Shown: positions 4,469-42,905 of the stretch, one piece after another | Layout: every line of letters begins with the position of its first letter | Position numbering within the stretch: position 1 is the stretch's first letter | Origin: an uncultured virus (IMG/VR IMGVR_UViG_3300022745_000033) | Lineage: Duplodnaviria > Heunggongvirae > Uroviricota > Caudoviricetes | DNA length: 64,000 bases | Strand: one strand, 5' to 3' | Virus record (IMG/VR): IMGVR_UViG_3300022745_000033 | Program-made: the position numbers and the translations under genes | Notes under the pieces: generated by a model | What the model was told of the DNA's origin: nothing | The model's input: the letters and a program-made list of their open reading frames with translations, nothing else | The model's database searches: none

Positions 4469-5890
4469 ATGCTGATCAATGGCTCTGCCGTCAATCAGGC
4501 CGCAGTCAATGGGGATCATGGTGCCCCGTGGAGCCCCCTCTATATCCCGACGGGATTCACCTCTGGTGGCTTCGGCACACCGTTTCGGCCAGCTACATAC
4601 TGCCAGGTCTCCAACGAGGTCCTCTACGCACCTCAACCAATCAATGCCCTGACAGCCACCTTTGCCAGCGCCGCAGTAACCAGCGACATCACCACGTCTA
4701 CTGGGTGGAGTGTTCTCTCGGGGGCTATTTCTGGTGGCGTGCTGGGCGACCCAACAGCGACTTCGTTCGGCGGGTGGCGTGAGGCACAACTTACTTTCGC
4801 TACCCCAATCACGCCTACGCTGCCGCTGACCATCACGGCAAACATGGTTGCCAAGAACCGCCCAGGCGGCTCTTCCCACGTTTTCACTGTGCAGCTCCAG
4901 CAGAGTACAGGTAATCTTGACATTACCGTCTCCAACGGCAGCTCGGGCACAAACAACCTTCAGTTCTCCACCCCTTGGGGTTATGTAGAGGAGACCGCTG
5001 CTGTCTGGACTGATGGGCAGGCGCTCACCATGCGGGCTGAGTTCACAGCAACCGACCTGAAGTTTTACCTCAACAACGTCCTCAAGATCATCAATTTCGG
5101 AGGGGCCTCGCCGAGCGGTCTCACAGGTGTGTATGTCAACGGGGGGTACGTAGACATCGACAACCTGACGTTCGTCGCCACTGGTTCGCCGGTCTACACG
5201 CCGAACTTCGACACGCCTGTGGCAAATCTGGGCACGCCGTTGCTCCCTTACACCGCGCTCCACACCGGTCCGATTGCAAAGGTGCCTGCGCCCTACCGCG
5301 TGTTCACCCAGACTGTGCAGCCCGCAGGGTTCAGCGCCACCCGCATCCCTGAGTATTTCTACGCTACCCCGGGCCTCCCTCCGTACGTCGTCAACGGCGT
5401 CTATGCACAGGAGACCTTCACGCCGGTCGTGTTCGGCACACCCGTCGCGCTGACCCCGGTGAGCGCTCCAGCCAGTGGGCTGGACTCCACCATCTTCGGC
5501 ACCCCAAACAACGCCCGCCGCATCCCTGCCGCAGGCTTCAGTGCCACCCACCTCGGCACGCCCTCGCTGGCAACGGGCCAGGGCGTCACGGGGTGGGTCG
5601 CCACAATGCTGGGCACACCCATCTCTGCCTACCGCCAGCCTGCTGCGAGCACCTACCGCGCCACGCGCTTTGGCCTGCCCACGTACACCCTGCCCAACAC
5701 ACGGAGCACCTACGGCTTCTGCCGCACGTGGTTTGGCCATCATCGCTCGGTTGTAGGCACGATGCGTACGGTCAGCGGCATCGCCGCGGGTCACTTTGGC
5801 ACACCGTCCACTTTCGCTCGCGCCAAGGCGCTGCACGTTCCTCCGGCCTGCCGCTTCGGTAAACCCCTCATGACCCGGGCACTGCCATGA
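4469..5890 (+). CDS. tail/virion protein with FGTP-type repeats
   Basis: 473 aa; recurring (F/L)GTP motifs around a beta-rich central domain; tail module context. Confidence 0.55.
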   Translation: MLINGSAVNQAAVNGDHGAPWSPLYIPTGFTSGGFGTPFRPATYCQVSNEVLYAPQPINALTATFASAAVTSDITTSTGWSVLSGAISGGVLGDPTATSFGGWREAQLTFATPITPTLPLTITANMVAKNRPGGSSHVFTVQLQQSTGNLDITVSNGSSGTNNLQFSTPWGYVEETAAVWTDGQALTMRAEFTATDLKFYLNNVLKIINFGGASPSGLTGVYVNGGYVDIDNLTFVATGSPVYTPNFDTPVANLGTPLLPYTALHTGPIAKVPAPYRVFTQTVQPAGFSATRIPEYFYATPGLPPYVVNGVYAQETFTPVVFGTPVALTPVSAPASGLDSTIFGTPNNARRIPAAGFSATHLGTPSLATGQGVTGWVATMLGTPISAYRQPAASTYRATRFGLPTYTLPNTRSTYGFCRTWFGHHRSVVGTMRTVSGIAAGHFGTPSTFARAKALHVPPACRFGKPLMTRALP

Positions 5891-13858: not shown

Positions 13859-16800
13859 ATGGCAACCTTACGCACCCCGCTGTTCCGTCAACCCACTATC
13901 ACCGCTGACGACCTCGACGCACTCCGCGCAAGTGGCATGTCCAACCTGCGTCGCGGCTTCGAGTCCGGCCGCATCGGCAACGACATCACCGGCCTTGCAG
14001 CCGATGAAGCCAGCCTACGCGCCGACAACGACAACGTTCGCGCTGACGCCCTGCGCTCACAGATCAACGCACTGCAGCGCCGCCAGGGTTTTTACGCGCC
14101 AGACGTACAGGATGTCACCAAAGTCGGTAGTGTGGGCGACGCGGTGGACTGGGCGACTGGTGCGGTGGGGCAGGGCGTGGCATCCATGGCTGACCCCATG
14201 GCTGTCTCCACCGGCCTGAACGCTGCTGGTGGTCTGATCAGCATGGCACCCAACCCGCTGGCCAAGGCAGTGGGTACCAGCCTACGCTGGGCTGCACCGG
14301 TGGCCGCGTACGGCATCAACGCCCGTCACCTGAAGGGCGAGGTTTACAACGACATGATGGGAGACCCCACCATCATGGCCAACCACTCCGCACAGGAACT
14401 GAACCGCCAAGCCAACATCTACGGCGGCATCGCAGGTCTGGCCGACACAGCCTTCCCCGCTGTGGTGGGTCGTCAGCTCACAGGCGCAGGCTTCGGCAAG
14501 GGTCTGCTCAAGAACGGCGGCGCCCGTCTGGGTGCCGAGCTGCTGGGTGAAGGTGTTACCGAGGCGGGTCAGGGCTACGGCAGCGCGTACCTGCGCAACA
14601 CGCTGAACCCAAACGTCGAGCACAACGATTGGAACGAGCGCATCAACGACTTCGCTGGTGGCGTGGCCGGTGCCGGTCCGTTCGCTGTGGGCGGTCACTT
14701 CGCGGACCATGGCTTCCGCCGCATCGGCGATAGTGTGGAGCGGGTGACTGAGAAGGCCGGTCAGGTAAAAGACCTGCTGGACCAGAGTGGCGCGACTGGC
14801 GCTGTGAAGACTGGCGCTCAGAGCATCGTCGGCTTCGGCAAAGGTCTGCTTGGTCGCGGCAAGGACTCCGTGGTCGACCTGATGGGCGACGAGAACGGCA
14901 AGATCACTCCTGAATCCGTGAAGCAGTCGTTCCGCGACGCTACAGACGGCATCACCAAAGAGCAGGGCATCTCTCCCGAGGACCAGTCCATCCTGCGCGG
15001 CGATGTGCCTGTCGACCTGCGCGACAAGCTCGACTCGCCTGAGTTTGAATCATGGGCCACCCAACACCACGAGGAGCGCACGAACAAGGTGCTCGACCAT
15101 CTGGAAACCATGGCTGAAGGCGGCGACAAGCGTGCTGACGAGCTGTTCCTCAAGGTCAACGACGCGATGACCGTGCCCGAGCACACCGCCGCTGTGAACG
15201 AGGCGTCCAAGTACGTCCTCGACAACAATGAACTCCAGCGTGAGCTGTCCAACGCTGAAGCCTTCGGCAAGCTGGCCGGTATGGGCGGCAAGGCTGTGGG
15301 TAAAGGCGCTGTGGCGGCTGGCAAGATGGCTGCATCCTTCGGTAAATCCGTGTGGGATGGCATGAAGGAAGGTGCCAAGAAGAACATGCAGGGTTCGCTC
15401 GAAGGCTTCGACGACTTCGAGGGCGACCGCCAGTCCAAACTGGGCGGCAACTACATCCAGCAACAGGCTGCGATGAAGAAGAGCCGCGACCGTGCTGAGC
15501 TGATGGGCGAGTACCTCGCCGCTGTAACCAAGGCCGAAACGCCTCGCTTCTCCGCCCACAGGGCTGGAGCTGAGGCAGCACCCGCATACATGAAGTCTCT
15601 GGGCTTTGAGATCGCTGACCTCGCTGACAGCTGGGGTCTGGCCAACGAGAAGGGCACTGCCAAGGCAGCGATCCAACCGTCCGGCCCCGCCAGCACCATC
15701 CAGACGACTGAGGACAAGAGGGGTCAGCAATTCGACGGCTTGAAGCTGAATCTGAACCGCGTGGTGAACAGCCTGCGCGTCATGATGGGTCAGGACAAAG
15801 CAGCCGAAGCACTGAACCAGATGCAGTCGCTGTACCAGGGCGACAAGCGTATTGCCCCGTTGTTCGACTTCATGCGCGACGAGCTGGCTACGCAAGCCTC
15901 GCCCCAAGGCCGCGAACACACCGCCCAAATCCGTGACGAAGCTGCTCAGGCCATCCTGGACAAGCTGCCGCAGGAGAAAGAGCTGGAGCTGATGAAAAAC
16001 GGCATCTCCATGCGCACGCCCGAGGGCCGCAAGCAGCTGCTGAGCATGGTGGAGCAAATCTCTGCCAACCGTGCGCCGCGTGAAGCCCGGGTAGCTTTGG
16101 CCAAATTGGTCGGTAGTCAGAACCTGAACGAGATGCTGGGTGTGGTGAACGCCAACCTCGAAAAGTCCGGGCTGTCTGAGGTGACGGTAGATGACCGCGG
16201 ACAGACCGAAGACTATGACGGCAGTTACGCCATGGACGACAACGGTGATTTCATAGCCGCCCAGTCTGCCAACGACGTAGACAAGAGTCATGCAGAGCGT
16301 CTGGTTGCGAAGGGCAGCGGCCCAAAAATCTACGGCTACGACTACGGCTCTGGCATGCGTCACAGCACCGGCAAGACCGACCCGTTCGCATCGACTGACC
16401 GTGTGTCCAAGAAAGAGCTGGCTGCGTGGGCCAAAGAAAATGCTGACCGCGCTACGCTCGGTGAAGAGCTTCTGCCAGACCCACGTACTGACTGGCAAAA
16501 AGCCTCTGCCGGCCGTCCCAATCTGTTCATGCGCGGCCGCAAACTAGCTGACGGCACTGACGCCGTACAAAAGAAGATCACCGACATGGGCAAGCTGCTG
16601 GGTGTGGACCGCACACCTGAGAACGCTGTGCGCCTGCTGCGTGAGGAAAATAACGAAAAGGCTGCTGCAAATCTCGAAGCTCTAATTAAGAAATCAAACG
16701 AAGGTGACGAGGCTGCGAGGCAGCGGATCGACGACAACCTCGACGACTTCTATGAGACCCGCGCTGGCTCGTGGGACTTCAAGGCCAAGCCTGCATCCGA

Positions 16801-19800
16801 GGTGATGAAGGACCACAACTACTCGCTGGGGCAGAAGCTGGCTGCATTCCGCGACTACCTCTACGGCGACAAAGAACCTGTGAAGGCCCGTGCTGTGGCA
16901 GACATGCTGCTCGACATGATTGACATCCAGCGCAAGGGCGAACCTAACAAGCAGAACCAGACCCGCACGACTCCCAAGCTGCGCAAGCAGATCATGGCCG
17001 CGATGGACAAATACTTCAAAGAGCGCGACGTGGTGGTGGGTGAGCAGCTGTCCAACCGCGACAACACGCAGATGACTGCGCCGGAGCTGTTGGAGATGGC
17101 GACCCAAGGCCGCAAGGTGATGGACCTCGCACGCAAGCCCGAGAACGCCGACAAAGCAGCGGGCATGATCGACCGCGCCAACATCCTGACGTTCAAGTCC
17201 AAACTGTCCACCTCCAAGGACGGCCTGCTGCACATCCCGGCTGGTGCGCTGGTGTACTGGGTGAAGTCGCAGAAGGGTATGACCCAAGCGTCGAACATCG
17301 AAGACACCACCGACATGGGCAACAAGAACAAGAACCGCGAGTACCTGAGTGCGCTGCTGGAGGGCGTGTACCAGATCGCTGCCAGCGGCATGGCCGATGG
17401 TCTGCCCTACAAGCTCAATGCTCGTGGCGAGAAGGAATACTTTGCGGACAGCAAGAGCAACAAGCTGGGTGTCCCGCCCAGCTTGCGCCTTGCTACCGGC
17501 AAGGCTGAGCACGTGTCCCTCGACGCGTGGAAGGGTGAGGGCGAAAGCCCGGGCCAGTACAGCGACGAGTACGTCTTCGGTAAGGCCAACCCTGAGCTGT
17601 CCAAGGACGAAGTGGAGGCCATGATCGCCCAGATCAAGCAAGAGAAGGGCACCAAAGGATTTCAGATCGCGCTCAACCGTGCTGCCCGCAAGGCCAAGCT
17701 GGACCTGACCGACTCCAAGAAAGCCTTCAAGGTGGCTGTGGATCAGGCCCGCGGTGAAGACCCGTTCACCGCTGAGCCGCTGGAAGTGGTGGACCCCAAG
17801 CTGGAGAACCCCGACTACTTCTCGCCTGAGTCCAAGAAGGGTCAGGCCCAGCGTCTGGCCGAGCGCCGCAAGGGTGGCGTCAAGGCTGACCGCCGTGGCG
17901 AAGAGACCACCACGAGCAATCTGGGCTACCGCGTGAACCGCTCCGGCAAGATGGTGGCCGAGGCGCTGACCACCGACGGCCATGCCACGCCGCTGGACTT
18001 CTTCGGTAAGCTGCCCGACGGCGCCCAGCGTGATGAGTTCGCTGACGTGCTGGGTCGCACCAAAGAAGGCGGCGAGAGCGTCTACAGCATGCGCAACGTT
18101 GACCTGGGCCGCGAAGACGCGACCGATGCCTTGGAGAAGGCCAGCGACCGCAGCGAGAGCATCGTGGAGAAACTGGTAAGCAACCCGAACGAAGGTCTGT
18201 CCGATCTGGCATCGCGCCTGCGTACTGCCCTGCGCCCGGGCTTCGTGGAAGCTGCCAAGACCGAAAACCGCGTCCAGTACCAGCGCAACATCGAAGCAGC
18301 CAGGAAGCAGCCTGTCGGTGGCAAGCAGTACCTGTTCCCTGCGGCAGCAGCCCTGTCGCCCGAGAACCTCCAGCACGTGCTGGCCTCTGCGGACGTGGGT
18401 CCCGAGGAAGCCGTGGCGCTGAAGAACCAGCTGTTCGGCATGCGCAAGGCAGCGGCCGGCATCGCAGCCAGCTTGGACCTGACGCCCAAGCAGCGTGTGG
18501 CTGTGGCCCGCATGCTGGCGACTGCCGACAAGCGCGACAAGATCACGCTGGCAAATGCTCAGGAATACCTGATGAAGCTGGGTGAGAACGGAGCCGATAT
18601 CGACCCCGAGGACACCGCAAGCAAAGGTGGCCCTGACCTGAGCCGACAGTACCAACTGGGCAAGACCCCACTCAAACCCACGACCCGCCCGAAAGGCGGG
18701 CCGGGTGGCAACGTGCTACAGGGGCCGTTGTTTGACGGTTTGAACGGACCTCTGGGCGGTGGACGCACGGGTGAGGATGCTATGGGCGCTGCGGCCGAGG
18801 CCGCGATCCAACGCCTCGCTGATAAGGCCCGTAAAGGAGGTGCCGCCGCGCCCTTGGGAAAGTCCCAGCGAAATGGGGGCAAAGCTGATTGGTCTGAGGG
18901 TGGGCGTAAACTCAACGCTCAGTCCACGGCCATCCATGAAGAACTTGGCCGGGAGGGGTTCGCCGCCACGCATGACAGCCCGCACATTTTTGACGGGAAA
19001 TTCGACTGGCGCCGCAACACCGGCCGCGGTGAAGGGCGCCGCGATGCGGGCGTCGACGAGAACGACCAGAGCAACGTGGCACAGGCCCGTGGCGCTGGTA
19101 CCTACCTGAGCACTGCGGACGGAGTGCATGAGTTCTACAAGAACAACTTCACAGCGTTTTATCGCGGCGAGGACATAGACAGTTTGCAACGCCAGCTGAA
19201 GTCACGCAATGCCGAGGACGCCGCGCTTCGGTACGCTGCGGATGCGAAGAACTGGGAAAAGTACGACTACGCACTTGGGCACGGCATGTCGCTAAAAGGC
19301 GATGCTTCCGGTGATTATGGCTCGTTCGTCCGTGAGCATGACATACAGTCTGGCGACGAGCAATGGCGCACGCCGTGGTCGGAGCGTGACGACGGCGTGT
19401 ACTCCAGCTTCGCCGAAGCACATGAGGCTGAATATGGAGGGTCATTAAGGCGCCACGAAGAAGAGATCATCAGGCTCAAGAAAGCGATCTCCGAATACAA
19501 GGAAAAGCGCTGGGACAAGTCGCCGACCTATCAGGTCTCTGTAAACATCCCACATGAACATCTGCTCGATTGGGATAAACCAATGGCCGAGCAGAGCGCA
19601 CACGTGAGGGAGGCCCTCAAAGATGTCGCAAGGTCGCGGGTCGCGGGTGTGGAGGCCAATCTGAAGCGCAACGGGTATAGAGATGGGGACGTCGTACATG
19701 GTTCCGACGGCAAGAACTACACCGTGTTCGACGACGGGTCCACTGGTTCGTTTGACTTCGTTGACAGTAACAACCGCATCGTGCCGGAAGCGCGTGCAGC

Positions 19801-22681
19801 TGAGATTCTCAAATCAGTGCTTGGTGACAAATGGGTCGACAAGATTCTCATACATGAGACTGGTGGACAGCTCTACCAGCGCCTGTCTGGCGAACTCGGT
19901 AGTAATCGTAAAGCCTCCGACTTCATGCAAGAGCGTGGGGTGCTTGGCAACGTGCATAACTCAATGGGGAGCAAAAACTCCGAGTACCGCAACTACGTGA
20001 TCTACGATGACAGCAAGATAACCACGAACTACGTCCACTTCAACGCCCAAGACGGTAAAGGCAACGGCATGCCCTCCACCGAGGCTCAGCGTCAAGAGGC
20101 GCGTGCCTATGTGGAGAAGGTGCTAGGCAAGGACGTGCGTGTGGCCTTCGAGGAAGCTATGGGTCACTCCGGCGAGTGGGTGGACGTAGACAACCTGATC
20201 AAAATCTCGACCACGTCCGCTGCCGGGGCGCTGGAGACCGCCTACCACGAGGCGCTGCATGCGTTCTTCAGCAAGTACGTGAAGAACAACCCCCAGGTAT
20301 TTGAGGCGCTGAAGACCATCGCCGAGGACCCCAAGATCGTGGAGCGTCTGCATGCCCTGCTGGATGGTCACCCGGCCGCGCAGGCTCAGCTGGCCCACGG
20401 CGAGGAGCGTCTGGCCTACGCTTACCAGTTCTGGGCGGCAGGCAAACTGGACCTACCCTCCATGAAGGCCAGGAACTGGTTCCAGAAGCTGCGTAATCTG
20501 TTCAAGCGTGTGTTGGGTATGGTCAAGGACTCAGAACGCGCCACAGCTCTTTTTGAGGCTTTCCACGAAGGTAAGCTGTCTGAGCCCTCCGCTGCGGGCA
20601 AGGTGATTGCCGCAGAACTGGCAAAAGGCACCTTCACCAAGGCCCAGTTACGCAAAATTGATACCCTGGTGCAGTGGGTGGCTGGCAAGACCATGCCGTC
20701 CGAGGCTGTGCTGGCCACCAGTGTGAGCGCCCGGGCGCAGGCTCTGGCCCGCGAGCTGTACACGAACCCGGCTGACCCCGAGGGTGCGAAGGAGGAGGGC
20801 TACAGCAACGCCAAGAGCCGCCACGCCAAGCAGTACAGCAACCTGTTCAAGGACATCGTGAACGGCCTGTCAGACCGCGATCTGCACGATGTGGAGACCC
20901 ACTTGCAGAAGCAGACCGAGCTGACCGACATCCCGTACACCCCCGTGCGCAAGGCGGTCATGGACACCCGCAAACTCAACCAGCGCTTTTACCGCTACAT
21001 GACCGAGGAGCGCGGCATGAAGCTGGGCTACCTTGGTCCGAAATACTACCCCCGCGTGTGGAGCAAGAGCGCCATGCTGACCCGTGGCTTTGAGTTCGTG
21101 GAAATGCTCAAGGAACATTACCCTGATGTTCTGGCCGAAGGTGTGAAGGCCAGCAAGGGCAAGCTCTCGGGTGAGGACGTGGCGTGGCGCATCCACAGCG
21201 GTATCGTGAACGCTGGTGAGTTCATGCAGAAGCGTGGCCCGCAGCGTGATGACGGCGTGCTGGCGCCGTACTTCATGAGTAATCGCGTGCGCGACTTAGC
21301 ATGGCTGCAGACCGAGCATAGCGAGCCGTTCCAGGAAAAAAACCTGATCAAGACCATGACCAGCTATTACCACGACGGTGCACGCGCCGCTGAGTACACC
21401 AGCCGGTTCGGTCAGGACGGTGCGCTGCTGGATAGTGCAATTACCGAAATCCACAACGAGTTGAACGAGCACAGCCTCAACGAGCTGACCAAAGGTCGCT
21501 TCAAGGACGAAGCCCAGCGTGCCAAGTGGGTGAAGAGTCAGATGCGTGATGTGCGTGCAGCTGTGGCAGCGCAGGAGGGCACGTTGGGTAAGGACATCCC
21601 CCCAGCGTGGCGCAAGTTCAACAGTTGGGTGGTGGCCTACCAGAACGTGCGCCTGCTGCCCATGATGCTGTTCAGCTCCATGGTTGACCCCATGGCGATG
21701 GTGGCTCGTGGCGCCCCGATGCGCGAAGCATACGATGCCTATGTACGCGGCATGACCGAAGTGTTCCGCAACTGGGGCGATATGTTCCGCGACCAACCCA
21801 AAGAACGCCAAAAGGACAAGTGGGAGAAATTGGCAGAAGCATCCGGCATCGTGGATGCTGCACTGTTCAACACCCACGTGTCAGACGAGTACGCCTCGAT
21901 TTACATGGATGGCAAGGCCAAGAAGATCAACGACGCTCTTTTCAAGCTCAATGGTATGGAAGCGTGGGACCGTGGCATGCGCGTGGCGGCTACTCGCTCC
22001 GCTGCCATGTTCATTGCCCGTCACAAGGGACTGCCGGATGCTACCCACAGCGAGCGCTGGTTGTCTGAGCTGGGTCTCACACCCAAAGATATTGAGTTGG
22101 ATGATCGTGGTGAATTGATCACTGACAAGCACGACCTGATGGACAAGCTAGGGATCACTCAGGAAGAAGCCGAACGCCGCACGGACAAAATGAACTACGC
22201 GCTCTCGCGCTGGGTACAAGGCGCAGTGTTGTCGCCGAACGCCGCCCACCGCCCTGCATGGGGGAGTGACCCGCACTACAGCATGTTCTTCCACCTCAAG
22301 CAGTTCACCTACAGCTTTCACCAGACAGTGATCAAGAACGCGGTGCACGAGATGAATTACGGCAACATGATCCCATTGGGCACGTTCGCTTGGTATATCC
22401 CCGTCATGATTGCATCCGACATTACTAAAGGCCTGATTCAAGGCGGTGGTGAATTACCGGGTCACATGAAAGGTATGGACCTCGGTGCGTGGGTGGCGCA
22501 TGGTGCTGAGCGTGCCGGCATGCTGGGGTTGGGCAACATTGCGGTCGACGCAAATAAAGATATTTTTTCTACAGCTGGTCCCATGGTTGAACAGATCATG
22601 GATGCGTGGGGTGCGCCAGCTCGCAATACTGCGTTGAATGCGCTCCCACTGCATGGGCTTTATGCGGAGGCGATGAAATGA
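13859..22681 (+). CDS. giant polyvalent internal virion protein (ART-like module and zincin HExxH domain)
   Basis: 2940 aa at the end of the structural operon; THDSPHIFDGKFD..TGRGEG..GAGTYL and RNYVIYDD resemble polyvalent-protein ADP-ribosyltransferase-like domains; YHEALH metallopeptidase motif at 20243-20260. Confidence 0.7.
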   Translation: MATLRTPLFRQPTITADDLDALRASGMSNLRRGFESGRIGNDITGLAADEASLRADNDNVRADALRSQINALQRRQGFYAPDVQDVTKVGSVGDAVDWATGAVGQGVASMADPMAVSTGLNAAGGLISMAPNPLAKAVGTSLRWAAPVAAYGINARHLKGEVYNDMMGDPTIMANHSAQELNRQANIYGGIAGLADTAFPAVVGRQLTGAGFGKGLLKNGGARLGAELLGEGVTEAGQGYGSAYLRNTLNPNVEHNDWNERINDFAGGVAGAGPFAVGGHFADHGFRRIGDSVERVTEKAGQVKDLLDQSGATGAVKTGAQSIVGFGKGLLGRGKDSVVDLMGDENGKITPESVKQSFRDATDGITKEQGISPEDQSILRGDVPVDLRDKLDSPEFESWATQHHEERTNKVLDHLETMAEGGDKRADELFLKVNDAMTVPEHTAAVNEASKYVLDNNELQRELSNAEAFGKLAGMGGKAVGKGAVAAGKMAASFGKSVWDGMKEGAKKNMQGSLEGFDDFEGDRQSKLGGNYIQQQAAMKKSRDRAELMGEYLAAVTKAETPRFSAHRAGAEAAPAYMKSLGFEIADLADSWGLANEKGTAKAAIQPSGPASTIQTTEDKRGQQFDGLKLNLNRVVNSLRVMMGQDKAAEALNQMQSLYQGDKRIAPLFDFMRDELATQASPQGREHTAQIRDEAAQAILDKLPQEKELELMKNGISMRTPEGRKQLLSMVEQISANRAPREARVALAKLVGSQNLNEMLGVVNANLEKSGLSEVTVDDRGQTEDYDGSYAMDDNGDFIAAQSANDVDKSHAERLVAKGSGPKIYGYDYGSGMRHSTGKTDPFASTDRVSKKELAAWAKENADRATLGEELLPDPRTDWQKASAGRPNLFMRGRKLADGTDAVQKKITDMGKLLGVDRTPENAVRLLREENNEKAAANLEALIKKSNEGDEAARQRIDDNLDDFYETRAGSWDFKAKPASEVMKDHNYSLGQKLAAFRDYLYGDKEPVKARAVADMLLDMIDIQRKGEPNKQNQTRTTPKLRKQIMAAMDKYFKERDVVVGEQLSNRDNTQMTAPELLEMATQGRKVMDLARKPENADKAAGMIDRANILTFKSKLSTSKDGLLHIPAGALVYWVKSQKGMTQASNIEDTTDMGNKNKNREYLSALLEGVYQIAASGMADGLPYKLNARGEKEYFADSKSNKLGVPPSLRLATGKAEHVSLDAWKGEGESPGQYSDEYVFGKANPELSKDEVEAMIAQIKQEKGTKGFQIALNRAARKAKLDLTDSKKAFKVAVDQARGEDPFTAEPLEVVDPKLENPDYFSPESKKGQAQRLAERRKGGVKADRRGEETTTSNLGYRVNRSGKMVAEALTTDGHATPLDFFGKLPDGAQRDEFADVLGRTKEGGESVYSMRNVDLGREDATDALEKASDRSESIVEKLVSNPNEGLSDLASRLRTALRPGFVEAAKTENRVQYQRNIEAARKQPVGGKQYLFPAAAALSPENLQHVLASADVGPEEAVALKNQLFGMRKAAAGIAASLDLTPKQRVAVARMLATADKRDKITLANAQEYLMKLGENGADIDPEDTASKGGPDLSRQYQLGKTPLKPTTRPKGGPGGNVLQGPLFDGLNGPLGGGRTGEDAMGAAAEAAIQRLADKARKGGAAAPLGKSQRNGGKADWSEGGRKLNAQSTAIHEELGREGFAATHDSPHIFDGKFDWRRNTGRGEGRRDAGVDENDQSNVAQARGAGTYLSTADGVHEFYKNNFTAFYRGEDIDSLQRQLKSRNAEDAALRYAADAKNWEKYDYALGHGMSLKGDASGDYGSFVREHDIQSGDEQWRTPWSERDDGVYSSFAEAHEAEYGGSLRRHEEEIIRLKKAISEYKEKRWDKSPTYQVSVNIPHEHLLDWDKPMAEQSAHVREALKDVARSRVAGVEANLKRNGYRDGDVVHGSDGKNYTVFDDGSTGSFDFVDSNNRIVPEARAAEILKSVLGDKWVDKILIHETGGQLYQRLSGELGSNRKASDFMQERGVLGNVHNSMGSKNSEYRNYVIYDDSKITTNYVHFNAQDGKGNGMPSTEAQRQEARAYVEKVLGKDVRVAFEEAMGHSGEWVDVDNLIKISTTSAAGALETAYHEALHAFFSKYVKNNPQVFEALKTIAEDPKIVERLHALLDGHPAAQAQLAHGEERLAYAYQFWAAGKLDLPSMKARNWFQKLRNLFKRVLGMVKDSERATALFEAFHEGKLSEPSAAGKVIAAELAKGTFTKAQLRKIDTLVQWVAGKTMPSEAVLATSVSARAQALARELYTNPADPEGAKEEGYSNAKSRHAKQYSNLFKDIVNGLSDRDLHDVETHLQKQTELTDIPYTPVRKAVMDTRKLNQRFYRYMTEERGMKLGYLGPKYYPRVWSKSAMLTRGFEFVEMLKEHYPDVLAEGVKASKGKLSGEDVAWRIHSGIVNAGEFMQKRGPQRDDGVLAPYFMSNRVRDLAWLQTEHSEPFQEKNLIKTMTSYYHDGARAAEYTSRFGQDGALLDSAITEIHNELNEHSLNELTKGRFKDEAQRAKWVKSQMRDVRAAVAAQEGTLGKDIPPAWRKFNSWVVAYQNVRLLPMMLFSSMVDPMAMVARGAPMREAYDAYVRGMTEVFRNWGDMFRDQPKERQKDKWEKLAEASGIVDAALFNTHVSDEYASIYMDGKAKKINDALFKLNGMEAWDRGMRVAATRSAAMFIARHKGLPDATHSERWLSELGLTPKDIELDDRGELITDKHDLMDKLGITQEEAERRTDKMNYALSRWVQGAVLSPNAAHRPAWGSDPHYSMFFHLKQFTYSFHQTVIKNAVHEMNYGNMIPLGTFAWYIPVMIASDITKGLIQGGGELPGHMKGMDLGAWVAHGAERAGMLGLGNIAVDANKDIFSTAGPMVEQIMDAWGAPARNTALNALPLHGLYAEAMK

Positions 22682-23790: not shown

Positions 23791-24053
23791 ACTGGTTCAA
23801 CAAACCCGGCCGTAAATGGAACCTGCGTGATCTGTTTGTAAATCACCAGACCGGTAGATTGCGTGAGACCGCACTCTGGTCAAACATCGGCAAAGCCGTG
23901 ATGACATGGGCGTTCATCTACTCCGTGATGCACGAACACTTCAACGAGACGCTGTGGGTGGCCTACGGTAGCGTCATCCTGGCCCATGAAGCTTACTCCC
24001 GCTTCATGAACCAGCGTCAGCAGGTACTGGACAAGGAGAAACCCCATGACTGA
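23787..24053 (+). CDS. putative holin (DUF2644-like)
   Basis: 88 aa, two hydrophobic helices, basic N-terminus, lysis cassette position. Confidence 0.6.
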   Translation: MNWFNKPGRKWNLRDLFVNHQTGRLRETALWSNIGKAVMTWAFIYSVMHEHFNETLWVAYGSVILAHEAYSRFMNQRQQVLDKEKPHD

Positions 24054-25665: not shown

Positions 25666-26652
25666 TCATTTCTTCTTCACGTTGTTGGCAAACGTAGCGA
25701 CGTATCCAGGCGTGTGGTGGGCGTAACGAAGCACCATGCGGAGGTCGCTCCACCCACCAAGCACCCTAAGCACTTCTAGCGGGGTACCGTTTTGGATGTG
25801 CCATGTCGCCCAGGTATGGCGGAAACCATGCCAAGTGAACCCCTCGTAGCCGTCCTCTGTGGTGTAACCTACGCCAGCGCGAACGCACGCAGCTTGAAAC
25901 GCCGTTTTCGGACTCTGAATCGGCCGGCCGCGGTACGTGAAGACCCACACCTCGTGTTGACCTTCTTGGCCTTTGAGGACTGCGACGGCATCATCATTGA
26001 GCGGGACTGCTATAGCTTCATCGCTTTTAGCGTCTTCCGCCTCGACCCAAACCAACTTCCTCTCAAGGTCGACACGCTTCCATTGAAGCCCAAAGACATT
26101 AGACTGTCTCAGTCCTGTACTGATCGCAAAGAGAGCCATGGGCTGAAGATGCTTTGGGAGTTCAGCGTAGAGTTTGTTCCATTGATCGTGCGCGATCCAA
26201 GCACGGGGTTTAGTTTTCTTGTCAGTTTTTGTTGCGAGCTTGGGTAGCTCGCGTAGCCAACCTTCATCTTTCGCCACATTCAGGATTGCCATGATCATGG
26301 TTCGGTAGCGGGTGTACGTACCGGCCGTCTTGCAGAAAGAAAGAGCGCTGTCGATGTTCTCCCGCGTGACAGATGTCAGCAACCGATCTGGATAGTTGCG
26401 CCCAAACTTCGCCAAACTCAGTAGTTCACTCTCACTGCGGGCCTCTTTGTTGACCCACTTCATCACAGCCATGCTCCAGGTTTTGCCCTTTAGCTTCGGG
26501 GTGGTCTTCCATAAATCTGCTTTGATCTCGTCATGGATTCGTTGCGCTTCTTTTTTATCAGCTGTTCCAGTTGTGCAACGTATCCGTGGGGCACCTGGGA
26601 TGGTGATGCTGACCCACCAGGGGCCGTCTGTTTTTTGTTGGTAGATAGACAT
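25666..26652 (-). CDS. int: tyrosine integrase
   Basis: TGLRQSN, WHGFRHTWATW, LGGWSDLRMVLRYAH catalytic motifs; start taken at MSIYQQK after GGAG. Confidence 0.95.
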   Translation of the reverse strand: MSIYQQKTDGPWWVSITIPGAPRIRCTTGTADKKEAQRIHDEIKADLWKTTPKLKGKTWSMAVMKWVNKEARSESELLSLAKFGRNYPDRLLTSVTRENIDSALSFCKTAGTYTRYRTMIMAILNVAKDEGWLRELPKLATKTDKKTKPRAWIAHDQWNKLYAELPKHLQPMALFAISTGLRQSNVFGLQWKRVDLERKLVWVEAEDAKSDEAIAVPLNDDAVAVLKGQEGQHEVWVFTYRGRPIQSPKTAFQAACVRAGVGYTTEDGYEGFTWHGFRHTWATWHIQNGTPLEVLRVLGGWSDLRMVLRYAHHTPGYVATFANNVKKK

Positions 26653-26825
26653 GATGCGTTCTCCAGATAGGAGCTGCGCATGAAGGCGATCAGATCGTCC
26701 TCCAGGAACGCCCAACTCCTACCTATCTTTGAACCAGGGATCAAGCCATCTCGCGCACGCTGCTGCAACGTATTCGGATGAATACGGAGCAAAGCAGCAG
26801 CATCAGCGAGACCGAGAGATTTCAT
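26490..26825 (-). CDS. xis: excisionase-like HTH protein
   Basis: LADAAALLRIHPNTLQQRARDGLIPGSKIGRSWAF is a MerR/Xis-type HTH; directly upstream of and overlapping int. Confidence 0.8.
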   Translation of the reverse strand: MKSLGLADAAALLRIHPNTLQQRARDGLIPGSKIGRSWAFLEDDLIAFMRSSYLENASCLSTNKKQTAPGGSASPSQVPHGYVAQLEQLIKKKRNESMTRSKQIYGRPPRS

Positions 26826-33689: not shown

Positions 33690-34445
33690 TTAGATGTACA
33701 TGCAACCGGCACGACCTTGGTACCGGTTGTGGGGCGCTTTCAGACCGATGCCCTCGGCGGTCTTCACAGCGCCACTGATGAGGTAGGCGTTAGGCAGCAG
33801 GATGTCATCGTCGTAGGCTGGCAGGTACTTCAGCAGCTCACGGACAATGCTGTCGTCCAGTGCTTTGAACATCAGGGCGTCATGAAGCAGCTGGCACATA
33901 GCCCTCTCGCTGCGCAGCTCTGCGTTGTGACGGCCTCCACGGATATGCAGCAGAGCGTCGCGGTGGTCACGCAGCGGCTGGAGTTTCTTACGCACGTGGG
34001 CTGCGAGCTTGCGGTCAAGGATGTAGGTGGTGGTCTCGGCAGCAGTGCTCTCGTCCAACACCCACTCGCCTTTCTTCAGACGAAACTCCAGCTGGCCGTG
34101 CTTGGGCTTGAGCCACAGATCTTTATAGAGGATATACATCACGCCACCATGTGAGGTTGCGACTATGCCTCTTGGGAGGAACCGGTTTGAGAAGGTGATG
34201 GAGCTACTGCTGTCGTACGTCCTGACACACAGCAGATCACGCCACCACTCCACCATGGCGGTGCTGTAGTAGGTGAACTGATACACACCGTCTTGGTTGG
34301 TGATGGTCTTGGAGGTGTCACGCTTGTTGGCCAAGCCACGTGTGTTCGGCCCGAAGCGGTCGTGTTCGTGGGACTTCGCCCAGACCTCTTGTGCTTTCTC
34401 ATAGGTGTTGACGTACGGCAAGTCGCGCCCGCTGATGGCAAACAT
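33690..34445 (-). CDS. hypothetical protein
   Basis: Start MFAISG after AAAGGAG; upstream extension in ORF track rejected. Confidence 0.7.
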   Translation of the reverse strand: MFAISGRDLPYVNTYEKAQEVWAKSHEHDRFGPNTRGLANKRDTSKTITNQDGVYQFTYYSTAMVEWWRDLLCVRTYDSSSSITFSNRFLPRGIVATSHGGVMYILYKDLWLKPKHGQLEFRLKKGEWVLDESTAAETTTYILDRKLAAHVRKKLQPLRDHRDALLHIRGGRHNAELRSERAMCQLLHDALMFKALDDSIVRELLKYLPAYDDDILLPNAYLISGAVKTAEGIGLKAPHNRYQGRAGCMYI

Positions 34446-34462
34446 CAGTTTCTCCTTTAGGT

Positions 34463-34543
34463 TGGTGGACGCTCCAATTTTTGGAGTCGGGCCTACTTGT
34501 CCGTATTCTTTCAACGGTGAGCCGATAGCTCTTAGGAGCGTCC
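34463..34543 (-). ncRNA. putative tRNA-like small RNA B (81 nt, 3'-ACCA)
   Basis: GGACGCTCC/GGAGCGTCC 9-bp terminal stem plus ACCA; internal hairpins GAGC/GCTC and CCGT/ACGG; TTTAC leader. Confidence 0.6.
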
Positions 34544-34548
34544 GTAAA

Positions 34549-34624
34549 TGGTGGAGACCCTGTTACTGCGACGCGAGAGACAGAGGGGGACCTATCTCTC
34601 GCCGCTGGCCAAGCCAGGGTCTCC
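34549..34624 (-). ncRNA. putative rod-like small RNA A (76 nt, 3'-ACCA)
   Basis: GGAGACCCTG/CAGGGTCTCC 10-bp terminal stem plus ACCA; inner GCGAGAGA/TCTCTCGC stem; TTTAC leader. Confidence 0.6.
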
Positions 34625-34631
34625 GTAAAAC

Positions 34632-35156
34632 TTACTTCTTAGATCGACCACCGCGTCCATGGTTCTTACCAAACGAAGTCTGTTTGCCTCGGGAGGCATT
34701 GTGTTTGCGCAACACTTTAGATACAACAGTTTGGGAAACGCCCATGCACTCGGCTACTTCCACTTGAGTTAGTGCTGATCCGAGACGAACAATCGCTCGC
34801 TCGTCAACGTCCAACTTCGGTCCGCTGCGGTGCCTACCCTTCGCTACCATGTCCCGCATATTGTCTTGGGTGGTACCTAAGAACAAATGGCTGGGGCGGT
34901 GACAGCGAGGGTTGTCGCACTTATGCAGCACGTTCAACCCCGCAGGGATTGGTTCAAGGTAGGTTTCGTAGGCGAGCCGATGAACCATAATTTTGCGACC
35001 GTCAATCTTGATCTGAGGGTACTTATGTCCGAGATCCAATGAAGTTTCCCAACATTCGTCATTCATGACCCGGTACTTGTTGAGTCGTTCTGCACTCGAC
35101 AGCCCTACTTGGCGTTTTGACTTATTTGGAATATCGAACATCGAACCCTCCTTCAC
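34632..35156 (-). CDS. HNH homing endonuclease with C-terminal HTH
   Basis: VHRLAY..VLHKCDNPRCHRPSHLFLGTTQDNMRDMVAKGR; LTQVEVAECMGVSQTVVSKV HTH; start may be 35141. Confidence 0.9.
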   Translation of the reverse strand: MKEGSMFDIPNKSKRQVGLSSAERLNKYRVMNDECWETSLDLGHKYPQIKIDGRKIMVHRLAYETYLEPIPAGLNVLHKCDNPRCHRPSHLFLGTTQDNMRDMVAKGRHRSGPKLDVDERAIVRLGSALTQVEVAECMGVSQTVVSKVLRKHNASRGKQTSFGKNHGRGGRSKK

Positions 35157-37212
35157 AGTTCAGCGGAATGTCTGGGCACCACGACGGCGGTGTGCTCATG
35201 GTCTTGGTCATGAGTTTGAAGCAGAACTCCGCTTCCCGCGTCTTGGGTAGCGCCACAGCTTCGTCGTGTGTGGTCATCACGACACGGAACTTCTTGTTGA
35301 TCTGAAGCATCTGCCATGCAACCACGATCCGCGCCAACGCTTGGACCAAGTTCTCGCACAGCAAGCCGCCATAAATCTTCTTGCGCATGTCGCCGGACTT
35401 GTAACTCCACTCGTCCCAGCCCTTGTCGCCCATGACTTTGCGAAGCTCGGGGTACTTGAGCGACATGCCGTTGGGGAGCCAGATGGTCTCCTTCTCCCAA
35501 CTGATCGGGCCGTGGCGTCCGTGGCGTCCAGCTGCCATGTCTTCGATGATCTTGGCGCAGATGTCCCAGCCCTGCTTGATCCTGAAGTTCGCACGGCGAT
35601 AGGTGTCCACGATCTTCTTGCAGTGATCCAGCTCGAAAAAGATCGGAGGACCGCCGAGGGCACCTTTGGCCAGCGTCATCTGGAACTTGGCAGCGCCCAT
35701 CTGGTAGCCCAGACCCAGAACACAGACCTTGCCGACGAAGCGTTCGGTCTTGTCTTCCTTGGTGATCTGACGGCCATAGATCAGCGAGGCGAAGTTGCAG
35801 TAGGCGTCTGACCCTGTGCCACTGTCGGCTGCACGGAACGCGTCCATGAGGTCGTTTTGACCCCACAGCCAGCCATTCACGCGGGCCTCGATCTGGCCGC
35901 TGTCCACCACGCACATCTGGTAACCCTTGGGCGCCAGGATGGACAGGCGCAGCTCACCACCGCGGGTGAGGTTCTGCATGTTCATCTTGTTGTTACCACC
36001 CCAGCGACCGGTGTGCGCACGGTAGTAGGCGTAGCCCACCGGTAGGTTCATACCATCGGCACCAGCCTTCAGGAACCGTTCGGCGCGTGTGATGTTGGTC
36101 GTGCTCTTCGTGGCCAACCGCGCCTCGACAAGTGCCTTGACGCGGTCTTGCTTTTCCGAGATAAGAGGGATGTCTTTCTTCTTATTGGGATCAAGCGAAC
36201 CACGCCAGAGGTCGATGTTGTCCGGTAGCGAGGTGAACTCCAGATCGTCCTTGGCGAACGCGTACGACCACTTATCAGTCTCATCCTCGCGCTCCTCTTT
36301 GCTGCGCTTCATCCACGCGGGGCTGATCTTCACAGGTGGCTCAATCCCTTCGGCACGCAGCAAGTCAGCGAACTTCTCGTTGGAGCCGAGGATGCGCTTG
36401 ATGATCAGCACGTCACGCTCTTCACCAACCAGCGCACGCTCGGCTTTGGTCTTGAGAATCGTCTTGTCGTTGTAGAACGGCACAGGGTCGATCACGGCGT
36501 AGAACTTGGCCTTGCGCTCGGCGACCTCGCGCTCGTACTCCTTCTGCACACGCGGGATATCCACCTTCAGCACAGGATCGCAGAACATGCGCAGGGTCAT
36601 GTCCACGAGGTCCAGCTCGTCGGACGGGAACTTGCCGTGCATCTCCTTGAAGATGGCATACGTCAAGTCCACGTCTTGGGCGCAGTAGGGCGTCACCGCC
36701 TTGACCAGTTGAGCGTCCCAGTTCTCCACGCCTTTGGTCGTCTCCAGCACGCCATCGAGCTTGGAGCCTTTGCCGTAGAACTGTGCCACTTCGTCCAGGC
36801 TGGCACCGATCTCGTTGCTGTGCAGGCCACGGGCCATGGACAGCGTGTCGTAGTAGCGCACTGGCTTGATCTTGTAGATGTGCGACAGGATGAAGCCGTC
36901 AAACGCAGTGTTGTGGCACAGCAGGCTGTGAGTGGCCCAGTTGATCGCTTGCAGCGCGGCCATGATGCGCAGGCGTCCGGTGTACACCTTGGTGGGTTTG
37001 TTGCCGATCTTGATGCCCACCATCTGCGCCTTGAAGCGCTTGTCACGCACGTACTCGCTGGTGCTCAGCTTGGACAGGGTGTAGTCGGTGTCGTAGAACG
37101 TCTCAAAGTCCACCGTCACCACACGGTTCCAGTCCACCACGCCGGGGGTGATCTCTGGGCGGTTGATGATGACTTGCGCCTTGGCGCGAATTTGTGCTCC
37201 CCATCCGCTCAT
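35122..37212 (-). CDS. polA: family A DNA polymerase with 3'-5' exonuclease domain
   Basis: VDFET, HNTAFD, YCAQDV exo motifs; DSGQIEAR (A), RFVGKVCVLGLGYQMG (B), THDE (C). Confidence 0.95.
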   Translation of the reverse strand: MSGWGAQIRAKAQVIINRPEITPGVVDWNRVVTVDFETFYDTDYTLSKLSTSEYVRDKRFKAQMVGIKIGNKPTKVYTGRLRIMAALQAINWATHSLLCHNTAFDGFILSHIYKIKPVRYYDTLSMARGLHSNEIGASLDEVAQFYGKGSKLDGVLETTKGVENWDAQLVKAVTPYCAQDVDLTYAIFKEMHGKFPSDELDLVDMTLRMFCDPVLKVDIPRVQKEYEREVAERKAKFYAVIDPVPFYNDKTILKTKAERALVGEERDVLIIKRILGSNEKFADLLRAEGIEPPVKISPAWMKRSKEEREDETDKWSYAFAKDDLEFTSLPDNIDLWRGSLDPNKKKDIPLISEKQDRVKALVEARLATKSTTNITRAERFLKAGADGMNLPVGYAYYRAHTGRWGGNNKMNMQNLTRGGELRLSILAPKGYQMCVVDSGQIEARVNGWLWGQNDLMDAFRAADSGTGSDAYCNFASLIYGRQITKEDKTERFVGKVCVLGLGYQMGAAKFQMTLAKGALGGPPIFFELDHCKKIVDTYRRANFRIKQGWDICAKIIEDMAAGRHGRHGPISWEKETIWLPNGMSLKYPELRKVMGDKGWDEWSYKSGDMRKKIYGGLLCENLVQALARIVVAWQMLQINKKFRVVMTTHDEAVALPKTREAEFCFKLMTKTMSTPPSWCPDIPLNCEGGFDVRYSK

Positions 37213-41446: not shown

Positions 41447-41781
41447 ACCAGCCCCTCCGGTACTTCCACTTCATCACCCAGCTTGCTTGCCACAAAGCAG
41501 CGCATGGCTGCGATCAGTGGGGTGGGGCCATATTGTTCAGCGCGAGGAGTTGCCTTGTTTTCTCTCGCAACAAACGCAGTAGCTTGGTCACCCCCCCAGT
41601 TTGTTGGGGCCGGAAAAATCTGTTCCCGCTCAATGATCGGGCCACCTTGCGCCCAGTTGGTGGAGTAGTCGCCTTTGCTCTGCGGCTTACCGTCGATAAA
41701 TATCGGAAACGGCTTGCTCATTTCCACAAAGTGAGCCACCGCCCAGTCAAGGGCAGCGCCTGTCAGTTCTGCGGTTTTCAT
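41443..41781 (-). CDS. DUF2591/NinX-like protein
   Basis: LTGAALDWAVA, YSTNWAQGGPIIERE, GPTPLIAAMRC motifs. Confidence 0.75.
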   Translation of the reverse strand: MKTAELTGAALDWAVAHFVEMSKPFPIFIDGKPQSKGDYSTNWAQGGPIIEREQIFPAPTNWGGDQATAFVARENKATPRAEQYGPTPLIAAMRCFVASKLGDEVEVPEGLV

Positions 41782-42905
41782 ATCTTGATCCTTACGTGCT
41801 CCCCCCAGGGCGGCACGACGTTCGTTGTCATGCACCACAGCACCGGGTAGTCCGGCTGCTCTGTTGGAAACGGGCCATAGCCGTCAGTCAGGTAGATGAA
41901 TGCGGCGGGTTTGATACCACGCTCCTCCAGCCACCGAAACGGCGGGCGAAAGTCCGTGCCACCGCCGCCGTGAGCCTCGAACGGCGGTAGCTCAGAGCCT
42001 TGCTCGATCTCGTCCACGTGAGCAATGTCTGCGTCGCAGTAGATGTTGATCAACTTCTCAGGATGCACCGCGTTGTAAGCGGCAGTGATCTCGGCACCGA
42101 AGGCGGTGAGCGTCGGCGTGTCGATAGAGCCAGAGGTGTCGATGCCGTCGGCCAGGACGCCCATGTTTTCGCTATACAGGCTAGGCATGATGAACCCGTG
42201 CGGGATCATGCGCTTGCTGGGGCGCTGCCACGAGTAATCGTTGCGGCTCACCTCGGTGACGAAGCGTTGCAACACAGCCTGCCACGGCACTTGGGGCTCT
42301 TCCAGCTCGCCCAAGAAGCGCTCCAGAGACTTGGGCATCTTGCCATACTCTTTAGCCATTTGAGCCGCAGCCTGCACGTTGACTTGCCACTCCAGAGCGG
42401 CTTCGGCAGCTTCGCCGGCAGAATGGGCGCCATCACGAACCTCGTCGAACGCAGGCTTACCAGCTCCACCAGCTCCACCGTCTTCAGATTCCAGTAGATC
42501 GTAGATGTGCTCAGTGGACATGTCGCGGTACTTCTCGTCGTAGAGCCAGTCAGCGCCCAGTTTGAACTTAGCGTCTCGGATGATGATGTTGATCACATAA
42601 TCACCGGCGCGATTCCAACGACCGGGCTCACGCCCACCACGGCGCAGCATGTGCTCACACACACAGTGCATGATCTCGTGGATCAAGGCAGAGCGTTGGA
42701 GTTCGGGTGACATGCTGAGCACGAAGTCAGGGTTGTAGAAGATGTGCTTGCCATCCACCGCGAGGGTCGGGACGGTCGTATCTTCTACAAACTGAAGGTG
42801 CATGGCCAGACGGCCGAAAAAGTAATGATCAAGCAGCAGCGTTATGCGGGCTGCAATCAGCTGATCCAGTGCTTTCTGATTCGTCACTTTCTTCACCATC
42901 TTCAT
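41778..42905 (-). CDS. metallopeptidase-vWA protein (DUF2201-like)
   Basis: HEIMH zincin motif; DTSGS MIDAS, GGGGTDF and YLTDG vWA motifs. Confidence 0.88.
   Translation of the reverse strand: MKMVKKVTNQKALDQLIAARITLLLDHYFFGRLAMHLQFVEDTTVPTLAVDGKHIFYNPDFVLSMSPELQRSALIHEIMHCVCEHMLRRGGREPGRWNRAGDYVINIIIRDAKFKLGADWLYDEKYRDMSTEHIYDLLESEDGGAGGAGKPAFDEVRDGAHSAGEAAEAALEWQVNVQAAAQMAKEYGKMPKSLERFLGELEEPQVPWQAVLQRFVTEVSRNDYSWQRPSKRMIPHGFIMPSLYSENMGVLADGIDTSGSIDTPTLTAFGAEITAAYNAVHPEKLINIYCDADIAHVDEIEQGSELPPFEAHGGGGTDFRPPFRWLEERGIKPAAFIYLTDGYGPFPTEQPDYPVLWCMTTNVVPPWGEHVRIKI

Follow-up and report, generated by a model that had tools for sequence, protein, structure and literature searches.

A widespread phage RNA family and a tandem pair of hairpin RNA genes with transfer RNA-like ends in an uncultured Caudoviricetes genome

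The DNA analyzed here, referred to as the window, is a stretch of 64,000 nucleotides (nt) from an uncultured Caudoviricetes virus (IMG/VR record IMGVR_UViG_3300022745_000033), and it carries two tandem hairpin RNA genes, designated A and B, behind a DNA polymerase gene on the minus strand. Each gene has a closing stem that starts with G and an encoded ACCA end of the kind found on transfer RNA (tRNA). The interior of B holds a conserved core that is a new, widespread and strongly conserved phage RNA family, absent from Rfam 15. This family, together with a cassette-like, tRNA-ended expression frame, is the most valuable result of the analysis. The best overall explanation, given a probability of roughly 0.55, is that A and B are tandem stable small RNAs that would be matured by the tRNA machinery, with the core of B acting in trans; it is based on the anatomy of the two elements, family membership, covariation and genomic contexts.

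Read along the minus strand, the region runs TAA (the stop codon of an HNH endonuclease gene), G, TTTTAC, GGAGACCCTG...CAGGGTCTCC, ACCA, TTTAC, GGACGCTCC...GGAGCGTCC, ACCA, ACCTAAAGGAGAAACTG and the ATG of a gene for a protein of 251 amino acids (Table 1). A preliminary description of this DNA had placed here two tandem elements of 76 and 81 nt, with leaders and ACCA ends and with unrelated interiors; the minus-strand sequence bears out all of these points, and the observation of tandem tRNA-ended hairpin RNA genes is real. The ends are paired in both predicted folds, with a minimum free energy of -43.8 kcal/mol (z -5.6) for A and -28.3 kcal/mol (z -4.4) for B, and none of 200 shuffles was as good in either case. 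A loose signature (G start, 7-bp stem with at most one G-U pair, NCCA) is not unusual, occurring 35 times in the window and 29 times on average in 20 shuffled sequences. A strict signature (G start, at least 9 Watson-Crick pairs, ACCA) is found at A and B alone on both strands of the 64 kb; in 200 dinucleotide-preserving shuffles its mean was 0.13 and two or more copies occurred in 2 of the 200, a count that ignores the adjacency, common strand and common leader of the two elements. The string TTTACGG also occurs on the minus strand at 23816 and 18835, and no similar hairpin was found at 23816, the one inspected.

Table 1 Coordinates of elements A and B and of neighbouring features in the window
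Feature	Position	Strand	Basis or remark
A 5' leader TTTTAC	34625-34630	minus	directly 3' of HNH stop codon 34632-34634
Element A, rod-like hairpin RNA, 76 nt including ACCA	34549-34624	minus	sequence and fold
A closing stem, perfect 10 bp, GGAGACCCTG with CAGGGTCTCC	34615-34624 : 34553-34562	minus	
A encoded ACCA	34549-34552	minus	
A/B spacer TTTAC, also the B 5' leader	34544-34548	minus	
Element B, hairpin RNA, 81 nt	34463-34543	minus	
B closing stem P1, perfect 9 bp, GGACGCTCC with GGAGCGTCC	34535-34543 : 34467-34475	minus	
Conserved core of B	34484-34531	minus	blastn, covariation, RNAalifold, model R1
P2, 3 bp	34529-34531 : 34484-34486	minus	
P3, 6 bp with one bulged C	34520-34525 : 34487-34493	minus	
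P4, 4 bp	34514-34517 : 34501-34504	minus	
9-nt apical loop UGAAAGAAU	34505-34513	minus	
B encoded ACCA	34463-34466	minus	
Family A DNA polymerase gene, upstream of the RNA slot	35122-37212	minus	context
HNH endonuclease gene, between polymerase and RNA slot	34632-35156	minus	Pfam HNH_3 2.4e-12, phrog_59 2.7e-27
AAGGAG ribosome-binding site of the 251-amino-acid gene	34452-34457	minus	
ATG of the 251-amino-acid gene	34443-34445	minus	
251-amino-acid gene downstream of B, function unassigned	33690-34445	minus	homologues follow the RNA slot in relatives

The core of B aligns without gaps among its relatives and is supported as a single irregular hairpin (P2, P3 and P4, with conserved internal loops) by compensatory changes. 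The covariance model R1 scores 81.3 bits on the window core, whose sequence was in the seed. In alignment A2 (41 distinct rows) 97.7% of the cells in P2, P3 and P4 are paired, and RNAalifold predicts P3 and P4 from it unprompted. In alignment A3, whose 42 rows come mainly from a metagenome scan, 98.2% of the cells are paired and 7 of the 13 pairs show compensatory change; none of 500 shuffles matched the observed values, and registers slid along the alignment paired at 19-36%. The informative pairs are 13:46 (AU 23, GC 10, GU 5, UA 3, CG 1, with no row unpaired), 12:48 (CG 36, UA 6), 11:49 (UA 41, CG 1) and, in P4, 21:33 (GC 38, AU 2, CG 1, GU 1). All 13 pairs are formed in the window, where P2 is GAG/CTC and differs by a compensatory change from the CAG/CTG of most members. 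An outer stem of unrelated sequence encloses the core; 31 of 42 loci have 7 or more uninterrupted pairs there, and in the window this stem is the 9-bp P1. The 9-nt loop behaves as a junction, since Stenotrophomonas phages insert an extra hairpin there (TGA-[stem]-AAGAAT). Because G-U pairs are among the changes, selection is on RNA of this strand, which is also the tRNA strand. The multi-arm fold with a degenerate T-loop that had been proposed for B is a single-sequence minimum free energy fold, and it is contradicted by the long-range P3 pairing and its covariation. Columns 24 and 29 of A2 and A3 (window 34512 and 34507) always change together, G to T and A to G; the co-changed loop TTTAAAGGAT is found in loci L056, L070, L072, L235, L261 and L268 and hints at an interaction within the loop.

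These results bear on the view that the hairpins have no RNA function and are chance palindromes, RNase III sites, terminators or DNA-level elements such as a homing endonuclease target or an attP fragment of a tRNA. An HNH gene adjoins the pair, homing endonuclease genes flank the core in locus L050, and loose stem and NCCA patterns are common by chance. Against these points stand the rarity of the strict pattern and the strand-specific compensatory changes, G-U included, which point to selection on RNA. Moreover, no T-run follows A or B, neither has a tRNA T-arm, the integrase gene is 8 kb away, and relatives that lack the HNH gene keep the RNA slot. A lack of RNA function is thus regarded as very unlikely.

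The family was found in many phages. A blastn search of the region against 50,697 phage records gave a match confined to 40-55 nt inside B in 54 records, with 89-94% identity (about 71% in Stenotrophomonas phages) and E values down to 6e-14. The records are of phages of Aeromonas (33), Enterobacter (5), Acinetobacter (5), Stenotrophomonas (4), Salmonella (3), Serratia (2), Pseudomonas (1) and Halorubrum (1), the last counted uninspected, and represent about seven host genera; a longer query gave 49 phage records. Among the 40 matches listed of the 54, no annotated feature lies under the core. Exact-pattern scans of IMG/VR yielded 42 and then 46 loci, one of which (L075) is false, and a scan free of P4 yielded 59, comprising 41 known loci, one new member (L199) and 17 non-members. 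A metagenome scan gave 63 loci; 53 of them belong to the family, and these have 38 distinct cores. When bacteria and archaea were scanned with one genome per species, the core was present in 3 of 185,579 (a Burkholderiaceae metagenome-assembled genome, Rhodoferax and Polynucleobacter), and the core is therefore essentially phage-specific; a blastn search with B found nothing in 5,426 E. coli genomes. No description of the core was found in the literature searched, although a catalogue of 10,006 candidate viral RNAs (PMC10690425) may include it: the core string is absent from the six supplements of that catalogue that were searched, with two large files and one further file lying outside the search. 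A 151-nt contig from another freshwater run (X5) matches the window at 34487-34526, within the core, alone; its flanks are unrelated, and it adds a member of the family carried by another phage of a like habitat.

The surroundings of the core were compared at 43 distinct loci (42 from IMG/VR and the window). At 18 of these, tRNA genes lie within 3.5 kb, and all 218 of the 218 tRNAs near those loci are on the strand of the motif. At 11 of the 43 loci the core has tRNAs no more than 120 nt away to both left and right, and at 15 on at least one side, with gaps down to 8-22 nt. In the four records opened (Astolliot, Aeh1, Salmonella phage As2 and Acinetobacter phage YMC13/03/R2096) the core is in each case between tRNA genes, and in Stenotrophomonas phage Summit it is between two protein genes, about 470 nt upstream of the tRNA cluster. 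The remaining 25 loci have early or replication-type surroundings (helicase, Erf, SSB, MazG, exonuclease, rIIA and homing endonucleases). In the printed sequences of L052, L058, L077 and L084, the core hairpin is followed by a terminator-like hairpin and a T-run. Given these several settings, the core is therefore taken to be expressed by several routes, and its position between tRNAs excludes a purely cis-regulatory role for the family.

The core is also found within larger structures. At some loci it forms the tip of a larger conserved scaffold, GGGG-AAAGCGGATGCTGG ... CAGACG-N-AGCGAGTA-CCCC, the tails of which are ACCT, ACCC, GCCT or GCCC in L051, L052, L053 and L063. Inside the closing stem, a scaffold of GAAAG(C/T)G on the 5' side and (A/C)(G/T)GAGTA on the 3' side recurs, in some cases tipped by the B core and in others not: it surrounds the core in L051, L052, L053, L063, L068 and L090, and further sites are in L096 (about 5160-5235), L101 (about 5092-5185) and L100 (1441-1476). 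We take this scaffold to resemble a loop-E or bulged-G internal loop; a likeness of GAAAGCG...GAGTA to RNase P RNA was considered and rejected, as Rfam gave nothing at E of 1 or less in 8 loci. In L234, L236 and L272 a small hairpin, CCC(C/A)GGAAAGAC(G/T)GGG, with a compensatory change of C-G to A-T, lies immediately 5' of the outer stem. The string CAGTCCTCAGCCGTGTTGG comes after one core copy in some contigs and ahead of a core copy in others (L074, L078, L079 and L080 versus L061, L062, L067, L076 and L092), a placement which suggests tandem core-bearing RNAs or a common larger scaffold. In L050 (3431-3484, minus strand), and likewise in L088, a hammerhead-like core (CTGATGAG-stem-CGAAAC) begins about 10 nt past the core hairpin; that of L050 scores 27.7 bits (E 0.0011) with Rfam Hammerhead_3, below the gathering score of 48.5, and HNH and homing endonuclease genes flank this locus, a tRNA cluster, on either side.

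Residence of the core in phage tRNA clusters is consistent with a tRNA decoy, an idea also raised in the preliminary description. B, and perhaps A, would pass into the route of tRNA maturation and then bind or occupy an enzyme of the host that acts on tRNA (an anticodon nuclease, some other defence that cleaves tRNA, or an enzyme of modification or repair), and phage translation would thereby be protected. The near-confinement of the core to phages points the same way, its strong conservation among phages whose hosts belong to different genera suggests that the target is conserved, and a gene for an RNA ligase (L049) or an RtcB-type ligase (L077) adjoins it. However, such ligases account for 2 of the 38 flanking proteins scanned, and the core is not tRNA-like, since ARAGORN and Rfam found nothing and the covariation describes a hairpin and not a cloverleaf. 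The decoy is a special case of action in trans with circumstantial support, and as a specific proposal it is considered improbable.

The place that A and B occupy in the window, from the polymerase gene to the 251-amino-acid gene, is occupied by other hairpins in relatives. Relatives of the polymerase are encoded at 78 IMG/VR loci, and at none of the 78 was the core present within 3 kb of that gene. The closest of them (L139, L100, L119, which equals L142, L096 and L101) have one or two other hairpins from the polymerase stop codon to a homologue of the 251-amino-acid gene and have no HNH gene; in L100 and L139 the RNA element directly follows the polymerase stop. Their elements have a leader of (T)TTAC, TTAT or ATAC, a closing stem starting with G, and ACCA, and the (G)TTTAC leader of A is also found ahead of its homologue in L139 and of other slot elements in L096, L101, L119 and L142. 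The homologue of A (L139, 1004-1088) keeps the first 26 nt with one difference, the last 22 nt and the ACCA, and its apical hairpin differs; within IMG/VR, homologues of A were found in L139/L300 alone. L100 has GGGTCGGC...GCCGACCC-ACCA followed by a mini hairpin, GGCC-GAAAGTG...CGAGTA-GGCC-ACCA, and L119 (L142) has GGGGCCAG...CTGGCCCC-ACCA. In L096 the element is TTTAC-GGAC-GAAAGTG...GAGTA-GTCC-ACCA, and in L101 there is a tandem pair, GTTAC-GGAC-GAAAGCG-GATGCTAG...AGCGAGTA-GTCC-ACCA-TTAT-GGGGC...GTCCC-ACCA, the interior of the first matching the scaffold which encloses the core in L051 and L053. An outer GGAC...GTCC-ACCA frame and the next ribosome-binding region are common to B, L096 and L101, with differing interiors; the frame is therefore conserved and the cargo exchanged.

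A further conserved slot RNA was seen in L100 (1339-1437) and in L113/L117 (the first 100 nt or so past the polymerase stop). Its common interior is GACTGGCC.CGATCAGTGCCAGA.AAAAG...GGATACGGA.ATGCTCTGCGCC, and its closing stems differ yet are complementary (GGGTCGGC/GCCGACCC in L100 versus GGGCGGG/CCCGTCC), with a tail of ACCA in L100 and ACCT in L113/L117. In L098, L128, L106, L119, L140, L141 and L143 the polymerase match spans about 2.95 kb, compared with about 2.1 kb; the additional 0.9 kb or so could be an endonuclease gene, an intron or an intein. An HNH-like open reading frame follows the polymerase in L098, L128 and L173.

The preliminary description had called A and B non-tRNA RNAs; they are neither tRNA, transfer-messenger RNA (tmRNA) nor any Rfam 15 family. 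Rfam 15 gave nothing at gathering scores in the window and nothing at E of 10 or less in 34300-34800, where matches to C4-type models and to Y RNA or YrlA-type RNA were likewise missing; C4-type models also gave no match at E of 1 or less in 8 related loci. ARAGORN found no tRNA or tmRNA gene in the 64 kb, and identity with tRNA is further rejected by the lack of a match to the Rfam tRNA model (RF00005) and by covariation that describes a single hairpin; tmRNA identity found no support from Rfam either. The likeness to tRNA lies in the lengths of 76 and 81 nt, the closing stem from G+1, the discriminator A with CCA and, for the relatives of B, the location in tRNA operons, whereas neither element has a cloverleaf or a T-arm. 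Model R1 was also run on an E. coli rrn operon for mimicry of ribosomal RNA, and the best score, 7.7 bits (E 0.32) in 23S, is noise.

The closest known systems are found among phage tRNA operons and RNase P substrates. The rnaC and rnaD genes of T4 (species 1 and 2) likewise encode non-tRNA stable RNAs of unassigned function in a phage tRNA operon, next to tRNA genes (NC_000866), and rnaD, which ends in CACCA, has the ACCA end in common with A and B. They are 119 and 139 nt long, whereas the core of B is about 48 nt and is spread over many phage groups, and homology is rejected, as R1 with filters off scored at most 6.6 bits (E 0.98) over the 6-kb T4 tRNA region. Among RNAs matured with the aid of RNase P is the CI RNA of P4. 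The C4 RNA of phages P1 and P7 is reported as another (PMC11143913); the context of C4 and CI is an immunity region, whereas here it is a replication module or a tRNA cluster. The non-tRNA substrates listed for RNase P are 4.5S RNA, tmRNA, phage M3 RNA, C4 antisense RNA and operon messenger RNAs (mRNAs), and RNase P RNA is described as pairing with the RCCA end of the substrate (PMC11143913). A helix beginning at the cleavage site and a 3' RCCA are common to such substrates and to A and B, both of which have an unpaired 5' leader, a helix from G+1 and ACCA at the 3' end; such substrates are, however, a functional class and not a family, and here at least two candidates occur in tandem as exchangeable cassettes.

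The preliminary description had also proposed that A and B are antisense immunity factors. In such a reading they would be RNase P-matured RNAs of the P1 C4 or P4 CI type, pairing with phage targets to control lysogeny or superinfection. A tyrosine integrase gene (25666-26715, minus strand) indicates that the phage may be temperate, C4 is a reported RNase P substrate (PMC11143913), and the conserved ends of A with an apex that differs from window to L139 are what a specificity determinant might show. However, the Rfam models without a match include those of the C4 type, no stretch outside the elements in the 64-kb window, which is most and perhaps not all of the genome, is complementary to A or B over more than 12 nt (shuffled range 10-14), and the core of B is shared by virulent T4-like phages within tRNA clusters. 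With no C4-type or other Rfam match and no complement above chance, the antisense reading is unsupported and is given hardly any weight. A tRNA-like reading that involves RNase P appears, from the sequences compared, to be the best available.

In the explanation preferred here, A and B would be two tandem small stable RNA genes within the minus-strand replication-module transcript, from which the host tRNA-maturation machinery would release each RNA. RNase P would recognize the helix that starts with G together with the 3' ACCA and would cleave the leader off at the junction of its C with G+1, and trimming of the 3' end would stop at the encoded CCA, giving RNAs of 76 and 81 nt. The leader, acceptor-like stem and ACCA would thus serve as an expression and maturation scaffold, and the interior as exchangeable cargo. 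This maturation is proposed because the features that survive cargo exchange are determinants of bacterial RNase P recognition and because the core occurs in tRNA operons. The cargo of B would be the family core, which in other phages would be made within tRNA operons with the same enzymes acting on both flanks, and this core would be the functional part of B, acting in trans. Its conservation across hosts and its near-absence from bacteria suggest a conserved partner; probably the core offers a binding platform, or serves as a decoy, for some conserved factor of host or phage, with a possible link to tRNA or RNA-repair biology, and this is the least certain part of the explanation. A is a lineage-restricted cargo of unassigned role. 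The claim of the preliminary description that these are non-tRNA RNA genes processed by RNase P is judged probable on comparative grounds, namely the same frame in relatives and the B core in tRNA operons.

A related possibility, put forward tentatively and thought unlikely, is that the region behind the polymerase is a hypervariable small-RNA cassette locus, in which the fixed tRNA-like frame would deliver whatever RNA cargo is inserted to the tRNA-processing enzymes of the host, and that the core of B is a widely exchanged effector RNA which binds, for example, a tRNA-directed defence or repair enzyme. An effector that binds a conserved host component would explain why unrelated phages keep the core inside tRNA operons.

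Several observations weigh against maturation by the tRNA machinery followed by action in trans. An NCCA tail was seen in the window and the Salmonella-phage type (L003/L073) alone and most members are without one, so tRNA-like ends are not a family trait. The base at -1 of both A and B is C, and E. coli RNase P prefers U at this position. The RNA-library data are assembled contigs, in which no RNA ends are observed: contigs of one metatranscriptome library cover 34146-34688, which indicates presence only and cannot tell transcription, strand or ends, just as a lack of cover elsewhere carries no meaning. One of these contigs (34499-34688) extends over the HNH stop, the whole of A and the junction of A with B, and it represents RNA that is unprocessed or else DNA contamination. 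No protein family is consistently beside the core, as clustering of the flanking open reading frames returned spurious frames over the motif and lineage synteny. With regard to structure, A2 was selected with P4 fixed, A3 kept only sequences in which P4 starts with CC, and the two alignments, which have contigs in common, do not count as independent; neither the two outer P4 pairs nor three of the P3 pairs vary, and A, with one homologue, has almost no comparative support for its structure. Finally, 5-12 nt separate the end of the last slot element from the ribosome-binding site of the 251-amino-acid gene family in the window, L096, L100, L101, L119/L142, L139 and L113/L117.

This constant place, kept in the window and in every relative inspected, together with slot interiors that are freely exchangeable and operon mRNAs that are reportedly cut by RNase P (PMC11143913), argues for punctuation of the message in cis. 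The elements would then be RNase P cleavage signals that part the polymerase/HNH message from the one downstream, or 5' or 3' stabilizers or translational controls of the 251-amino-acid gene, and the excised RNAs would be functionless. A pure cleavage signal needs no cargo as strongly conserved and covarying as the core of B, though, and where tRNAs flank the core on both sides (11 of the 43 loci) no mRNA is regulated there; at the four loci with a terminator-like hairpin and T-run, that structure follows the core. Punctuation in cis is accordingly viewed as a minority possibility, and stable RNAs with a core acting in trans are preferred.

The window represents a phage genome of about 64-68 kb with 57% G+C and encodes a terminase, a portal, a primase and a minus-strand replication module; near-identical DNA is present in freshwater metagenome runs, and the nearest virus record (G001) gave no match. 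The module is ordered polymerase, HNH, A, B and 251-amino-acid gene, and the HNH gene is context and not part of the RNAs. A simple scan of the minus strand from the polymerase to the 251-amino-acid gene found no sigma-70-like promoter and no terminator-like site, and A and B would be transcribed with the module as one unit. The 251-amino-acid protein belongs to no Pfam or PHROG family, falls in the Atlas into unnamed viral clusters alone, and recovered no relatives when used in the related-locus search. Elsewhere in the window are a second HNH endonuclease gene (phrog_1314; 41778-42905, minus strand) and a gene for a virion protein of 2,940 amino acids (13859-22681, plus strand).

Phage tRNA clusters are usually annotated as tRNAs with empty gaps between them. 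One filler of these gaps is a sharply conserved structured RNA, unannotated among the records listed and missing from Rfam 15, and it is common to T4-like phages of Aeromonas, Enterobacter and Serratia, to phages of Acinetobacter, Salmonella, Pseudomonas and Stenotrophomonas, and to many uncultured freshwater and soil phages. Several of the carriers are cultured, which makes the role of non-tRNA RNAs in phage tRNA operons directly testable, a question that dates from the discovery of the T4 species 1 and 2 RNAs. In the window phage, which is without any tRNA gene, the core comes with an acceptor-like stem and ACCA of its own, and in the relatives of this phage other cargos fill that frame. Such a frame would parallel, in nature, the engineered tRNA scaffold used for expressing RNAs.

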